Positions 16,470-23,001 of a stretch of 64,000 nt of DNA are shown here, piece after piece. The notes under the pieces are model-generated. The model saw nothing but the letters and a program-made list of their open reading frames with translations. It was not told where the DNA came from and did not search any database. The stretch comes from Shigella phage vB_SsoM_113. The translations under genes and the position numbers were made by a program. The number at the start of each line of letters is the position of its first letter. Position 1 is the stretch's first letter. The stretch lies in sequence record LR746311; one strand, given 5' to 3'.

Positions 16470-17651
16470 ATGTCTATTGCAGATTTAAAATCCCGTTTGA
16501 TTAAAGCTTCCACTTCTAAAATGACTGCTGAACTGACTACATCTAAATTCTTTAATGAAAAGGATGTAATCCGTACAAAAATCCCAATGCTTAATATCGC
16601 TATTTCTGGTGCAATTGATGGTGGTATGCAGTCTGGTTTAACCATTTTTGCAGGTCCTTCTAAACACTTTAAATCAAATATGTCTTTGACTATGGTTGCG
16701 GCGTATTTGAACAAATATCCTGACGCGGTATGTCTATTCTATGATAGCGAATTTGGTATTACTCCAGCTTATTTGCGATCCATGGGAGTTGACCCGGAAC
16801 GAGTAATTCATACACCAATTCAGTCAGTTGAACAGCTGAAAATTGATATGGTGAATCAGCTTGAAGCTATTGAGCGTGGTGAAAAAGTTATTGTATTCAT
16901 CGACTCAATTGGTAATATGGCTTCTAAGAAAGAAACGGAAGATGCCTTGAATGAAAAATCTGTGGCAGATATGACTCGTGCTAAATCACTGAAGTCATTA
17001 TTCCGTATTGTTACTCCTTATTTTAGTATTAAAAACATTCCGTGTGTTGCGGTTAACCATACAATTGAAACAATTGAAATGTTTAGTAAAACCGTGATGA
17101 CAGGTGGTACAGGCGTAATGTATTCGGCTGATACTGTGTTCATTATCGGTAAGCGCCAGATTAAAGATGGTTCTGATCTTCAGGGGTATCAATTTGTTCT
17201 AAATGTAGAAAAATCTCGTACCGTTAAAGAAAAAAGTAAATTCTTTATTGATGTTAAATTTGACGGTGGCATCGATCCTTATTCTGGATTGTTAGATATG
17301 GCTCTTGAATTAGGATTTGTGGTAAAACCTAAAAATGGCTGGTATGCTCGTGAATTTCTTGACGAAGAAACCGGTGAGATGATTCGCGAAGAAAAATCTT
17401 GGCGTGCAAAAGATACCAATTGCACTACATTCTGGGGTCCTTTATTTAAGCATCAGCCATTCCGAGATGCTATTAAACGCGCTTATCAGTTAGGTGCTAT
17501 TGATAGTAATGAAATTGTTGAAGCTGAAGTTGATGAATTGATTAACTCAAAGGTTGAAAAATTTAAATCTCCAGAAAGTAAAAGTAAATCAGCAGCTGAT
17601 TTAGAAACTGACCTAGATCAGTTAAGTGATATGGAAGAATTTAATGAATAA
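16470..17651 (+). CDS. uvsX: recombinase UvsX (RecA-like)
   Basis: 393-aa product, Walker A GPSKHFKS, recognised as T4 UvsX. Confidence 0.95.
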   Translation: MSIADLKSRLIKASTSKMTAELTTSKFFNEKDVIRTKIPMLNIAISGAIDGGMQSGLTIFAGPSKHFKSNMSLTMVAAYLNKYPDAVCLFYDSEFGITPAYLRSMGVDPERVIHTPIQSVEQLKIDMVNQLEAIERGEKVIVFIDSIGNMASKKETEDALNEKSVADMTRAKSLKSLFRIVTPYFSIKNIPCVAVNHTIETIEMFSKTVMTGGTGVMYSADTVFIIGKRQIKDGSDLQGYQFVLNVEKSRTVKEKSKFFIDVKFDGGIDPYSGLLDMALELGFVVKPKNGWYAREFLDEETGEMIREEKSWRAKDTNCTTFWGPLFKHQPFRDAIKRAYQLGAIDSNEIVEAEVDELINSKVEKFKSPESKSKSAADLETDLDQLSDMEEFNE

Positions 17652-17988
17652 AGATGATTTAGATTTAGATCTAGAAATTATTGATGAATCCCCCTCTTCG
17701 GAGGGGGAAGAAGAAAGAAAAGAACGTCTTTTTAATGAATCTCTTAAGATAATTAAATCTGCCATGGAAAATGTTATCCAGGAGATTGTCATTAAACTAG
17801 AAGATGGTTCTACACACATTGTGTATGTGACAAAATTAGATTGGGTTGATGGAAAAGTCGTAATGGACTTTGCTGTTCTTGACCAAGAAAGAAAAGCTGA
17901 GTTAGCTCCTCATGTAGAAAAATGTATTACAATGCAACTACAAGATGCATTTAATAAAAGGTCAAAGAAAAAATTTAAATTCTTTTAA
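17644..17988 (+). CDS. 40: gp40 head vertex assembly protein (start uncertain, alternative GTG 17626)
   Basis: ORF between uvsX and 41 as in T4; GGAAG RBS before ATG 17644. Confidence 0.65.
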   Translation: MNKDDLDLDLEIIDESPSSEGEEERKERLFNESLKIIKSAMENVIQEIVIKLEDGSTHIVYVTKLDWVDGKVVMDFAVLDQERKAELAPHVEKCITMQLQDAFNKRSKKKFKFF

Positions 17989-17997
17989 GGAGTAAGT

Positions 17998-19425
17998 GTG
18001 GTAGAAATTATTCTTTCCCATCTCATATTTGATCAAGCTTATTTTTCAAAAGTTTGGCCATATATGGATTCAGAATATTTTGAAAGTGGTCCAGCTAAAA
18101 ATACATTCAAATTAATTAAATCTCATGTTAATGAATACCATAGCGTTCCATCTATTAATGCGTTAAATGTTGCATTAGAAAATAGTTCATTTACTGAAAC
18201 AGAATATTCTGGTGTAAAAACACTTATTTCAAAACTGGCCGATTCGCCAGAAGACCACAACTGGTTAGTAAAAGAAACAGAAAAATATGTTCAGCAAAGG
18301 GCGATGTTTAATGCTACGTCTAAAATAATTGAAATTCAAACTAATGCTGAGCTTCCTCCAGAAAAACGAAATAAGAAAATGCCAGATGTAGGTGCTATTC
18401 CTGACATCATGCGCCAAGCATTATCAATTTCATTTGATAGTTACGTTGGTCATGATTGGATGGATGACTACGAAGCACGTTGGCTATCTTATATGAATAA
18501 AGCTCGTAAGGTTCCATTTAGACTCAAAATTCTAAATAAAATTACTAAAGGTGGAGCTGAAACTGGAACACTGAACGTTTTAATGGCTGGTGTTAACGTC
18601 GGTAAGTCATTAGGTCTGTGTTCATTGGCAGCAGATTATTTGCAGCTCGGACATAATGTTCTTTACATTTCCATGGAAATGGCAGAAGAAGTCTGTGCTA
18701 AGCGTATTGATGCTAATATGCTTGATGTTTCTCTTGATGACATTGATGATGGGCATATTTCTTACGCTGAGTATAAAGGAAAAATGGAAAAATGGCGTGA
18801 GAAATCTACTCTTGGACGTTTAATCGTTAAACAGTATCCTACTGGTGGAGCAGACGCTAATACATTCAGGTCTCTCTTGAATGAATTGAAGCTCAAGAAG
18901 AATTTTGTTCCAACAATCATTATTGTTGACTATCTGGGTATTTGTAAATCTTGCCGCATCAGAGTTTATTCAGAAAATAGTTACACAACTGTTAAAGCTA
19001 TCGCAGAGGAATTGCGTGCTCTGGCTGTTGAAACCGAAACTGTTCTTTGGACCGCAGCACAGGTTGGTAAACAAGCTTGGGACTCTTCTGATGTTAACAT
19101 GAGCGATATTGCAGAATCTGCCGGCCTTCCAGCAACAGCCGATTTTATGCTTGCGGTCATTGAAACCGAGGAGCTAGCAGCTGCTGAACAACAACTCATT
19201 AAGCAAATCAAATCACGATATGGTGATAAGAATAAATGGAATAAGTTTTTGATGGGTGTTCAAAAAGGAAATCAAAAATGGGTAGAAATTGAGCAAGATT
19301 CTACTCCAACCGAAGTGAACGAAGTAGCAGGTTCACAGCAGATTCAGGCTGAACAGAATCGCTATCAAAGAAACGAATCCGCTCGAGCTCAGTTAGATGC
19401 TTTGGCAAATGAATTAAAATTTTAG
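17998..19425 (+). CDS. 41: replicative DNA helicase gp41 (DnaB-like)
   Basis: 475 aa, GTG start after GGAG RBS, Walker A GVNVGKS. Confidence 0.95.
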   Translation: MVEIILSHLIFDQAYFSKVWPYMDSEYFESGPAKNTFKLIKSHVNEYHSVPSINALNVALENSSFTETEYSGVKTLISKLADSPEDHNWLVKETEKYVQQRAMFNATSKIIEIQTNAELPPEKRNKKMPDVGAIPDIMRQALSISFDSYVGHDWMDDYEARWLSYMNKARKVPFRLKILNKITKGGAETGTLNVLMAGVNVGKSLGLCSLAADYLQLGHNVLYISMEMAEEVCAKRIDANMLDVSLDDIDDGHISYAEYKGKMEKWREKSTLGRLIVKQYPTGGADANTFRSLLNELKLKKNFVPTIIIVDYLGICKSCRIRVYSENSYTTVKAIAEELRALAVETETVLWTAAQVGKQAWDSSDVNMSDIAESAGLPATADFMLAVIETEELAAAEQQLIKQIKSRYGDKNKWNKFLMGVQKGNQKWVEIEQDSTPTEVNEVAGSQQIQAEQNRYQRNESARAQLDALANELKF

Positions 19426-19454
19426 TTTACAAGCCGACAAGACTATGGTATAGT
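19425..19454 (+). promoter_or_regulatory. T4-type early promoter (dmd)
   Basis: GTTTAC 19425-19430, 18-nt spacer, TATAGT 19449-19454; spacer carries 9-bp inverted repeat. Confidence 0.55.
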
Positions 19455-19483
19455 AGTCTTGTTGGTTAAATGAGGAGATTGTT

Positions 19484-19666
19484 ATGGAATTGGTAAAGGT
19501 AGTTTTTATGGGGTGGTTTAAGAACGAAAGCATGTTTACTAAAGAGATCACAATGATGAAAGATGACGTTCAATGGGCTACTACTCAATATGCTGAAGTT
19601 AATAAAGCGCTAGTTAAAGCTTTCATTGATGACAAGAAGGTATGTGAAGTGGATTGCCGAGGATAA
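19484..19666 (+). CDS. dmd: Dmd antitoxin (inhibitor of RnlA/LsoA)
   Basis: 60-aa product MELVKVVFMGWFKNESMFTKEI directly after gene 41, recognised as T4 Dmd. Confidence 0.85.
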   Translation: MELVKVVFMGWFKNESMFTKEITMMKDDVQWATTQYAEVNKALVKAFIDDKKVCEVDCRG

Positions 19667-19667
19667 T

Positions 19668-19925
19668 ATGCATATCGTTTTATTTAAACCTACTCCGTAT
19701 AATGTCAGGAAAAATACTCAATTCAAAGCACTTATTGCAGATACGTGGGAATTAGTATTAGATATTCCGGCAGAAGAAAGCCCTCCATTTGGTCGAGTGG
19801 AATTTATTAAGTTTGTTGTGCGCCCTACAAAGCGACAGATTCGTCAATGCAAAAGATACTTTCGTAAAATCGCCAAGTTAGAGAAACAGTTTGTAACATG
19901 TGATTATGCAGAAGTTTTAAAATAA
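19668..19925 (+). CDS. small basic protein (85 aa; position of T4 61.4)
   Basis: GAGGA RBS, ATG 19668; C-terminus rich in K/R (RPTKRQIRQCKRYFRK). Confidence 0.5.
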   Translation: MHIVLFKPTPYNVRKNTQFKALIADTWELVLDIPAEESPPFGRVEFIKFVVRPTKRQIRQCKRYFRKIAKLEKQFVTCDYAEVLK

Positions 19926-19926
19926 C

Positions 19927-19956
19927 TGTTTACTTTTATTGGAAATTGAGATACTA
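19927..19956 (+). promoter_or_regulatory. T4-type early promoter (sp)
   Basis: GTTTAC 19927-19932, 18-nt spacer, TACTAT 19951-19956. Confidence 0.5.
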
Positions 19957-19985
19957 TATAAACATAAACTACTGAGGAGATTATC

Positions 19986-20279
19986 ATGAAAAAATTTATC
20001 TTTGCTGCAATTTTTGCTTTATCTTCTTGCGCTGCTCAGCCTGCTATGGCGGGTTATGACAAAGATTTGTGCGAATGGTCTATGACTGCAGATCAGACTG
20101 AAGTTGAAATTCAAATTGAAGCGGATATTATGAATATCGTTGAACGTGATCGTCCTGAAATGAAAGCTGAAGTGCAAAAACAACTTAAATCTGGTGGTGT
20201 AATGCAGTATAATTATGTTCTGTATTGCGATAAAAACTTTAATAATAAAAATATCATCGCTGAAGTGGTAGGTGAGTAA
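19986..20279 (+). CDS. sp: Spackle periplasmic protein (superinfection exclusion)
   Basis: 97 aa with cleavable signal peptide, at T4 61.3 position. Confidence 0.8.
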   Translation: MKKFIFAAIFALSSCAAQPAMAGYDKDLCEWSMTADQTEVEIQIEADIMNIVERDRPEMKAEVQKQLKSGGVMQYNYVLYCDKNFNNKNIIAEVVGE

Positions 20280-20291
20280 TTAGAGGTTAGT

Positions 20292-20648
20292 ATGTATAGT
20301 TCTGAATTTTCATATTTAAAAATGGAAAAAATTTCATACGATTTTATAGATGAAAAGGTTTATTACAGCTTCCATGAACCACGTTTTAATAGTGAGGTTG
20401 GGTTTATTATAGTAAAAGACAATTTCATTTTAAAAATATATTCGGCATTAAAGGATTTTCACTACGAAAATATTAACCTAAAATTTGATAAAGAAAACGT
20501 TCGTAATTGCGCAGTAACAATTACAGGAAATAAAGGTACATGCGTTATGCTATCTGATGAAATTAATGATTTGTTAAATGATGTAGAAAAAGTTGCTATT
20601 CCATCGATTGATGACCAAATTTTTAATGCTTTTATGAATAGAGGTTAA
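20292..20648 (+). CDS. hypothetical protein (118 aa; position of T4 61.2)
   Basis: ATG ORF with AGAGG RBS. Confidence 0.6.
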   Translation: MYSSEFSYLKMEKISYDFIDEKVYYSFHEPRFNSEVGFIIVKDNFILKIYSALKDFHYENINLKFDKENVRNCAVTITGNKGTCVMLSDEINDLLNDVEKVAIPSIDDQIFNAFMNRG

Positions 20649-20649
20649 T

Positions 20650-20814
20650 ATGAAAACATATAAAGAATTTATTAAAGAAGATATGGTAGCTGGAGATTCA
20701 GGTGGTAATCCTGAAAATATCTCCACTGGAACAACGTCAGGTGCTGTAGTAAATAAAGGTCCTGAACAGATTCCTAAAAAGAAAAAAGAGGAATCTAAAG
20801 AAAAAGAAGAGTAA
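20650..20814 (+). CDS. hypothetical protein (54 aa, Lys/Glu-rich tail)
   Basis: GAGG RBS, ATG 20650; not in track. Confidence 0.45.
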   Translation: MKTYKEFIKEDMVAGDSGGNPENISTGTTSGAVVNKGPEQIPKKKKEESKEKEE

Positions 20815-20816
20815 AA

Positions 20817-21845
20817 ATGTCATCAATACCTTGGATTGATAATGAGTTTGCATACCGTGCATTGGCTCATTTACCTAAATTCGCACAAGTAAATAATAGT
20901 TCAACTTTTAAATTACGGTTTAGATGTCCTGTTTGTGGAGATTCAAAAACCGACCAAAATAAAGCCCGTGGATGGTATTATGGTGATAATAATGAAGGAA
21001 ATATTCACTGTTATAACTGTAACTATCATGCACCAATCGGAATATATTTAAAGGAGTTTGAACCTGATTTATATCGTGAGTATATCTTTGAAATAAGAAA
21101 AGAAAAAGGTAAAAGTCGTCCAGTAGAAAAACCTAAAGAACTTCCTAAACAACCTGAGAAGAAAATAATTAAATCTCTTCCGTCATGCATTAGATTAGAT
21201 AAACTGGCGGAAGACCATCCAATTATAAAATATGTAAAAGCTCGTTGTATTCCAAAGGATAAATGGAAATATCTTTGGTTTACAACCGAATGGCCTAAAT
21301 TAGTTAATAGTATAGCGCCAGGAACATATAAAAAGGAAATACCTGAGCCTCGTCTTGTTATTCCAATTTATAATGCTAACGGAAAAGCTGAGTCTTTTCA
21401 AGGACGTGCATTAAAGAAAGATGCTCCTCAAAAATATATCACCATCAAAGCTTATCCTGAGGCAACAAAAATTTATGGAGTCGAACGAGTCAAAGATGGT
21501 GATGTATATGTTCTAGAAGGACCTATAGATTCACTTTTTATTGAAAATGGTATAGCTATTACGGGTGGTCAATTAGACCTAGAAATTGTTCCATTTAAAG
21601 ATAGACGTGTGTGGGTTTTAGATAATGAACCTCGTCACCCTGACACTATTAAACGAATGACTAAATTGGTTGATGCAGGAGAAAGGGTTATGTTTTGGGA
21701 TAAATCTCCCTGGAAATCAAAAGATGTTAATGATATGATTAGAAAGGAAGGTGCAACCCCTAAACAAATTATGGAATATATGAAAAATAATATTGCCCAA
21801 GGGTTGATGGCTAAAATGCGGCTATCTAAATATGCTAAGATTTAA
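20817..21845 (+). CDS. 61: DNA primase gp61
   Basis: 342 aa, zinc-binding CPVCGDS, Toprim region, recognised as T4 gp61. Confidence 0.95.
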   Translation: MSSIPWIDNEFAYRALAHLPKFAQVNNSSTFKLRFRCPVCGDSKTDQNKARGWYYGDNNEGNIHCYNCNYHAPIGIYLKEFEPDLYREYIFEIRKEKGKSRPVEKPKELPKQPEKKIIKSLPSCIRLDKLAEDHPIIKYVKARCIPKDKWKYLWFTTEWPKLVNSIAPGTYKKEIPEPRLVIPIYNANGKAESFQGRALKKDAPQKYITIKAYPEATKIYGVERVKDGDVYVLEGPIDSLFIENGIAITGGQLDLEIVPFKDRRVWVLDNEPRHPDTIKRMTKLVDAGERVMFWDKSPWKSKDVNDMIRKEGATPKQIMEYMKNNIAQGLMAKMRLSKYAKI

Positions 21846-22042
21846 ATTAACCCAACTAAAGCAAATGCTAAATCTACGAATGTATCAAGAGTAATTACTG
21901 GAATATTAACGCCATGAGCAATAGCAATTGGCGATAAAACAAAATTCCAGAGTAAAATTCCTACCATAGCAGAAATAGTAAAAGCTATACGTTTTTTATT
22001 ACCTTTTATGGCATTAACAAGTGCCATTAATTTTTGTACCAT
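21842..22042 (-). CDS. small membrane protein (66 aa), antisense to the early operon
   Basis: AAGGAGG RBS 5 nt before ATG; two hydrophobic segments; late-promoter-like AATAAATA upstream; stop overlaps gene 61 stop. Confidence 0.5.
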   Translation of the reverse strand: MVQKLMALVNAIKGNKKRIAFTISAMVGILLWNFVLSPIAIAHGVNIPVITLDTFVDLAFALVGLI

Positions 22043-22055
22043 ATGTCCTCCTTAT

Positions 22056-22079
22056 TGCTTTATATATTTATTGTATAAT
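22056..22079 (+). promoter_or_regulatory. MotA-dependent middle promoter of gene 56
   Basis: TGCTTTA 22056-22062, 11-nt spacer, TATAAT 22074-22079. Confidence 0.55.
22065..22072 (-). promoter_or_regulatory. late-promoter-like element AATAAATA (one mismatch to TATAAATA)
   Basis: about 22 nt before the ATG of the minus-strand ORF. Confidence 0.35.
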
Positions 22080-22113
22080 TAATCTACTAACCCATGAATT
22101 GAAAGGAAAAATA

Positions 22114-22632
22114 ATGGCTTACTTTAATGAATGTAGTCAACTGATTGAAGGCGCTGATAAAGCTCAAAATGAATACTGGGATATTCTCGGCGATGAAAAA
22201 GACCCGCTGCAGGTTATGCTTGATATGCAGAAATCTCTGCAGGTTCGTTTAGCTAAAGATAAACCTGAATATAACCGTCATCCTGATGATTTGGCTACTG
22301 CAGGTGAAGTTGTTGATTGGCTGCGTAATCAGAAAGATTATATTGATGATGAATTCCGCGAACTTCTGACTTCTCTTGGTGGTATGAGCAATGGCGAAAA
22401 AGATGCATCTGCTGTATGGAAGCCTTGGAAGTCGCAACACGGTGAACGTCGTGAAACTCTGATTACTGATTTGTCTCCACAAGACCAGTTGGAAATTAAA
22501 TTCGAAATGATTGATATTCTTCATTTCGTTCTGAACATGTTCCAAGGCCTCGGTCTTACGGCTGAAGAAATCTTTAAACTTTATTATCTGAAAAATGCTG
22601 AAAACTTCGCTCGTCAAGACCGAGGTTATTAA
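22114..22632 (+). CDS. 56: dCTPase/dUTPase gp56
   Basis: 172 aa from ATG 22114 (MAYFNECSQLIEGADKAQNEYWDILGDEKDPLQVM), recognised as T4 gp56. Confidence 0.93.
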   Translation: MAYFNECSQLIEGADKAQNEYWDILGDEKDPLQVMLDMQKSLQVRLAKDKPEYNRHPDDLATAGEVVDWLRNQKDYIDDEFRELLTSLGGMSNGEKDASAVWKPWKSQHGERRETLITDLSPQDQLEIKFEMIDILHFVLNMFQGLGLTAEEIFKLYYLKNAENFARQDRGY

Positions 22633-22856
22633 TGGCTCGTTTAAATAAACGCCAGCTTAAGAAAGCCCACAAGAAACGTATTGACCAGCTATTTAAAAAT
22701 TATGACAAGGAGCTCACATACGAGCTCTTATCTAATCAGCTTCGTGCAGTTGATTGGGGTGTAGAAGAAGGTCTTGATGAAATTTTTGTCAGTAAAGAAG
22801 CCTTAAAATTAATTATAGAGCATTCAAATGAAAATATCCAAAGAAGAATTTATTAG
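22632..22856 (+). CDS. hypothetical protein (74 aa)
   Basis: TAATG coupling to gene 56. Confidence 0.5.
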   Translation: MARLNKRQLKKAHKKRIDQLFKNYDKELTYELLSNQLRAVDWGVEEGLDEIFVSKEALKLIIEHSNENIQRRIY

Positions 22857-23001
22857 ACGACAAAAAGCTTTAATTAATTTATACGAGTGGTATGCCTATC
22901 AACTTAAAGTAGATAGCTCTAATATAAATGCTGTAATGGCTTTATATAAACAAATTCAAGATGAACACGAATTCCTGGCACAAGTTTTCATTGAAGACTG
23001 A
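22828..23001 (+). CDS. possible small ORF (57 aa)
   Basis: ATG ORF overlapping previous gene; weak RBS. Confidence 0.25.
   Translation: MKISKEEFIRRQKALINLYEWYAYQLKVDSSNINAVMALYKQIQDEHEFLAQVFIED

Follow-up and report, generated by a model that had tools for sequence, protein, structure and literature searches.

The question raised by this locus is whether the small gene directly following dmd encodes a further phage factor directed against host toxins, and if so, which one. A sequence-only reading, relying on position and composition, had proposed an anti-toxin island after the helicase gene 41, made of Dmd and an adjacent small basic protein that was guessed to be an RNA-binding counter-defense factor, "TifA-like," i.e., an inhibitor of an endoribonuclease toxin. 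We have analyzed the locus within the window, by which we mean the whole 64-kb stretch of DNA (64,000 nucleotides). The ORF list contained dmd, the 85-aa ORF and spackle, all three at the positions given in that reading. Its span of 19484-19925 corresponds exactly to dmd plus the 85-aa gene, but leaves spackle outside. The genes of the region are the following:

16470-17651, plus strand: uvsX (ORF list)
17626-17988, plus strand: gene 40, 120 aa, GTG start at 17626 (ORF list)
17998-19425, plus strand: gene 41, helicase (ORF list)
19484-19666, plus strand: dmd (gene 61.5), 60 aa
19668-19925, plus strand: tifA (gene 61.4), 85 aa, ATG at 19668
19986-20279, plus strand: spackle, sp (61.3), 97 aa, Pfam T4_Spackle at 1.6e-44, 93 of 97 residues identical to T4 Sp
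20292-20648, plus strand: gene in the 61.2 slot, 118 aa, short T2-type form
20650-20814, plus strand: 61.1 (ORF list)
20817-21845, plus strand: primase gene 61 (ORF list)

The order uvsX-40-41-dmd-61.4-sp-61.2-61.1-61 is the one found in the T4 reference (NC_000866). The source is a T4-like phage, a Tequatrovirus distinct from T4, and the best matches among public records had ca. 97% identity over positions 17000-23000 and 99.7% over 19400-20300. Spackle is a periplasmic protein with no anti-toxin role. The T4-annotated start of gene 40, which overlaps the end of uvsX, is an ATG located 18 nt downstream of the GTG at 17626, and the resulting 114-aa version is 100% identical to T4 gp40. Two minus-strand ORFs of 40-45 aa (19414-19551 and 19466-19588) were regarded as spurious, lying antisense to dmd.

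The first gene of the pair presents no difficulty. All 60 residues of Dmd are identical to those of T4 Dmd, and the protein matched Pfam Dmd (PF17587; 1.6e-46, 156.9 bits), PHROG 2102 and, among solved structures, PDB chain 5hy3_B, "Antitoxin Dmd" (1.8e-37). The gene is preceded by a Shine-Dalgarno sequence, GAGGAG, at 19472-19477. Dmd is an antitoxin mimic that binds and inhibits the endoribonuclease toxins RnlA and LsoA.

The 85-aa protein, judged by its sequence, is the orthologue of T4 gp61.4, TifA (UniProt Y02A_BPT4), the ToxN inhibitory factor A of T-even phages. The homology search, which had been suggested as a check, retrieved the T4 protein with 82 of 85 identical residues (96.5%), the substitutions being A50V, V69A and I83V. 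Identity to T2 TifA was 96%. The protein also scored above the gathering score of Pfam DUF7279 (73.4 vs. 24.5 bits, 1.4e-20) and matched phrog_2375 at 2e-37. The guess of a TifA-like factor was thus, if anything, too cautious: at this level of identity to T4, and in the same operon position, the product is TifA itself, a named and characterized gene that was already known, so that the guess was right and there is no new discovery in it. At the nucleotide level tifA differs from T4 at 15 positions, which leave the amino acid unchanged in 11 codons and replace it in 3; the five codon changes in dmd are all synonymous. This large excess of synonymous over non-synonymous changes in both genes indicates purifying selection and is the pattern of protein-coding sequences.

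Relatives of the 85-aa protein are encoded in 639 phage records, 623 of which span at least 80% of its length. Seven close relatives were found by a word-indexed protein search and nine matches at E ≤ 1e-3 by an exhaustive search of representatives clustered at 50% identity; at single-sequence sensitivity the family is therefore small. One of the matches of the exhaustive search, P0008, is a predicted protein of 2435 aa in which two stretches resemble TifA (E = 2e-22); this giant ORF, on a phage contig, is most likely a gene-calling error.

The two genes are tightly packed. The junction reads TGC CGA GGA TAA T ATG CAT, with one base (T19667) between the dmd stop and the tifA ATG. The spacing is the same in T4, also 1 nt (dmd at 20371-20553 and 61.4 at 20112-20369 in NC_000866). 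The earlier description of the second gene as starting "2 nt later" was correct in placing it directly after dmd, but the gap itself is only this base, so that the ATG begins two positions past the last base of the stop. A Shine-Dalgarno sequence, GAGGA, is found at 19659-19663, 4 nt 5' of the ATG, and the arrangement fits translational coupling or co-transcription of dmd and tifA. Around the pair we located three further features:

19426-19454, plus strand: early-promoter-like site, TTTACA, 17-nt spacer and TG-extended TATAGT, 10 of 12 consensus matches
19432-19467, plus strand: hairpin of 15 bp, an inverted repeat in the gene 41-dmd spacer (arms 19434-19445 and 19454-19465)
19942-19946, plus strand: GAAAT, a ToxN cleavage motif, 17 nt past the tifA stop

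The site at 19426-19454, presumably the promoter of a dmd-tifA operon, differs from T4 by a single base and agrees with the published early promoter (PMC9391042). A search of 19300-20400, a range that takes in dmd, tifA and the spacer leading to sp, gave no terminator-like site. The hairpin, which overlaps the dmd promoter at its -10 hexamer and is not followed by a U-run, has a predicted RNA minimum free energy of -21.8 kcal/mol (z = -6.6 vs. shuffled sequences). It is kept in T4, T2 and Shinka, where all three variable positions pair through G-U and double compensatory changes are absent. Only transcripts that read through from gene 41 could form the hairpin, and it might act as a 3'-end stabilizer, a processing site or a modulator of the promoter; it has no place in the published TifA story. 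Direct repeats were absent from 19300-20100, i.e., there is no tandem amplification of dmd-tifA like that of toxIN-escape T4 mutants. Elsewhere in the window dmd-tifA gave only two isolated 14-mer matches, and the locus is single-copy.

The function of TifA has been worked out on near-identical alleles. Srikant et al. (2022, eLife, PMC9391042) showed that the protein inhibits ToxN, a type III toxin. In T4 the gene is co-transcribed with dmd from an early promoter upstream of dmd, and tifA alone, not dmd, restored plaquing and rescued cells from ToxN. ToxN co-precipitates with TifA, and T4 tifA knock-outs lost about 100-fold in plaquing efficiency on chromosomal toxIN. The TifA proteins of T2, T4, T6 and RB69 all inhibit ToxN, that of RB69 being the most potent (PMC9391042). 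The mechanism was addressed by Guegler et al. (2023, NAR, PMC10853763), who measured a KD of 0.36-2.3 uM for TifA and RNA. RNA is bound through the basic C-terminal helix, and ToxN becomes trapped in an inactive RNA-protein complex, a ribonucleoprotein of high molecular weight in which 16S rRNA is enriched. The variants P53A T54A and K55A R56A R59A no longer bind RNA, co-immunoprecipitate ToxN or rescue cells. Binding of toxI and of TifA to ToxN appear mutually exclusive, the ToxN substitutions K111N/R, Y115H and L118S escape TifA, and F41S or F41H in TifA produces stronger inhibition (PMC10853763). The specificity of the homologues is narrow. The T2, T4 and T6 proteins (>96% identical to T4 TifA) neutralized ToxN(Ec) as well as three ToxN proteins closely related to it, TenpN and distant ToxN homologues were not neutralized, and several TifA homologues neutralized none of the ToxN tested, so that membership of DUF7279 is by itself no guarantee of activity. 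The ToxN co-expression and RNA-binding assays that had been proposed as checks are therefore already published for near-identical alleles (PMC9391042, PMC10853763); these two papers report no tests of TifA against RnlA or LsoA.

The residues on which this activity depends are all found in the window protein. P53, T54, K55, R56 and R59 are invariant in the alignment of the window, T4, T2, RB69 and JS10 sequences, and the block PTKRQIRQxKRxFRK is unchanged from the window phage, T4 and T2 to RB69 (a Mosigvirus) and JS10 (a Dhakavirus). With a pI of 9.8 and a net charge of +8 the protein as a whole is basic, as had been noticed from composition. However, the "strongly basic C-terminus" of that description has to be moved inward, since the cluster is central to C-proximal (residues 52-72, with nine K/R and a net charge of +8) and the last 13 residues have a net charge of 0. 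This part of the protein is rather a basic helix with a short T-even-specific extension after it. An AlphaFold2 model gave strands at residues 3-7, 27-32 and 47-49 and a helix at 55-84, the same order of elements as in the published AlphaFold models of TifA, which have three strands and then a long C-terminal helix. Confidence in this model is low (mean pLDDT 49.2) because the alignment, built from the word-indexed search, was shallow (eight sequences), and support for the fold therefore comes only from the order of secondary-structure elements together with the published models. A PDB sequence search with TifA gave no match at E ≤ 10, and there is no solved structure of TifA.

Taken together, we consider it highly probable that the segment is a two-gene early operon, dmd-tifA, in which both genes provide counter-defense against the RNases of host toxin-antitoxin systems. 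Our own evidence lies in sequence identity, the order of the genes, the motifs that are conserved and the signs of purifying selection. That the protein neutralizes ToxN, co-immunoprecipitates with it, binds RNA and needs its basic helix is taken from work on near-identical alleles. In the mechanism published for TifA, extended here to the present allele, the shut-off of host transcription after infection would let the labile toxI RNA decay and set ToxN free. TifA would bind RNA by its basic C-terminal helix, with the P53-T54 cap and K55, R56 and R59, and the surface formed by its beta-sheet and loop, including residue 41, would contact the toxI-binding face of ToxN. The toxin would then be held in an inactive, high-molecular-weight RNA-protein complex enriched in 16S rRNA, and phage transcripts would not be cleaved.

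The idea of an anti-toxin island agrees with what has been published, where the dmd/tifA region with adfA (61.2) was called a possible "anti-TA island" (PMC9391042). The 61.2 slot is nevertheless where the present phage departs from T4. The 118-aa protein is 93% identical to T2 gp61.2 and only 30-35% identical to RB69 and T4 AdfA (35% to T4). Like AdfA (T4 gp61.2, anti-DarT factor A) it occupies the same slot and carries the C-terminal SIDDQIFNAFMNRG motif common to both, and the Pfam AdfA model (PF23813) aligned weakly, with 33.4 bits over positions 113-211 of its 211. However, T4 AdfA has 208 aa and the window protein is without the entire N-terminal half; in the column of RB69 R164 and T4 H165 it has Asn. 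A full-length AdfA would have about 210 aa, including the N-terminal half, and would carry His at the equivalent of RB69 position 164; none of these is found in the 118-aa protein. About 290 phage records carry the short form at ≥90% identity. According to the literature (PMC11257639), T2, which bears this form, has by nature no homologue of adfA. The published three-member island is therefore reduced here to dmd and tifA, plus a short 61.2 variant.

Other readings of the locus have to be weighed against the protein operon. One could suppose that the RNA of the tifA region is itself the active agent, as a decoy substrate or as a toxI-like antitoxin RNA for ToxN, and a ToxN motif, GAAAT, is indeed found just past the ORF, at 19942, the sole copy in the dmd-tifA transcript region. 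The motif lies within a conserved promoter-like region upstream of sp (GTTTAC at 19928-19933 and TACTAT at 19952-19957). In T4, however, removal of the ATG inactivated a tifA construct, recoding of 55 of the 258 nt left the gene active and function was unaffected when a presumed ToxN site at its 3' end was ablated (PMC9391042), all of which identifies the protein as the active agent and already refutes the RNA reading for T4. If GAAAT at 19942-19946 corresponds to that ablated site, as we assume, it is probably irrelevant to inhibition. The whole 64-kb window gave no Rfam match at gathering thresholds, and the substitutions follow the protein-coding pattern; we give the RNA reading practically no credence. 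It could also be argued that the real product is longer, since the frame is open from a TTG at 19626 down to 19925 (99 aa, with the ATG at 19668 internal and giving 85 aa) and would overlap the 3' end of dmd. Four public gene calls (P0001, P0002, P0004 and P0006) do carry a 13-aa N-terminal extension (MTRK...AEGN before MHIV...). Yet GAGGA sits 4 nt upstream of the ATG, which is the annotated start in T4, T2 and Shinka; in the alignment the same Met opens the homologues of RB69 and JS10, and the published functional constructs correspond to the 85-aa ORF, whose function in T4 is abolished by deletion of the ATG (PMC9391042). The 99-aa product is thus very improbable, and the 13 upstream residues are probably an artifact of start-codon choice.

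A further reading concerns specificity. The exact V50/A69/V83 combination was absent from the phage collection (best match 98.8%), and the allele of phage Shinka and many others differs from it by a single residue, A50V, located three residues before the PT helix cap. An allele tuned to a different toxin, be it another ToxN clade or another RNase, and ineffective against the studied E. coli ToxN, could be imagined from the differing specificity of TifA homologues (several neutralized none of the tested toxins), from single substitutions such as F41S/H that alter potency and from the closeness of A50V to the functional helix. Against this, every tested homologue with >96% identity to T4 TifA (T2, T4 and T6) neutralized ToxN(Ec), the three substitutions are conservative and two of them are common to many sequenced Tequatroviruses, and F41 and the PT/KR motif are unaltered, so that we regard such retuning as improbable. 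A more novel reading, in which the V50/A69/V83 allele is shifted in potency or toxin range and the short 61.2 protein, having replaced full-length AdfA, is at the same time an anti-toxin factor, for example against another DarT or TA toxin, appears improbable, and neither part has positive support. At residue 41 the window protein has Phe, like the less potent inhibitors of the T4/T2/T6 type. With F41 kept, the literature predicts weak inhibition, and by analogy the allele would behave like those of T4, T2 and T6, being enough against toxIN at chromosomal level and not against plasmid-borne toxIN.

This Tequatrovirus therefore very probably carries the standard dmd-tifA counter-defense operon described in 2022-2023, to which our analysis adds little that is new, and its behavior on rnlAB/lsoAB and toxIN hosts should be predictable from T4 and T2. 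The value of the identification is mostly one of annotation, as tifA almost always appears as "hypothetical protein" among the T4-like phage records listed. The predicted weakness of the inhibition bears on host-range prediction for phage therapy candidates.

The two proteins can also be compared with known systems. Dmd and TifA are alike in being small phage proteins that stand in for a labile host antitoxin, and share no sequence similarity. Dmd is a protein antitoxin mimic that binds the toxin directly (the structure of a complex is deposited as PDB 5hy3), whereas TifA requires RNA binding and builds a ribonucleoprotein trap. RB69 TifA (gp61.4) has in common with the window protein the family, the PTKRQIRQxKRxFRK motif and the adjacency to dmd. 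However, it has only 70 aa, is 56% identical, has H41 in place of F41 and is without the 15-residue C-terminal extension, and RB69 has imm.1 and imm between tifA and sp. The closest known system is T4 TifA, which shares with the window allele the length of 85 aa, the dmd-tifA-sp position, the upstream promoter, F41, the PT cap, the basic helix and the C-terminal extension, and differs from it by three conservative substitutions (A/V, V/A and I/V).
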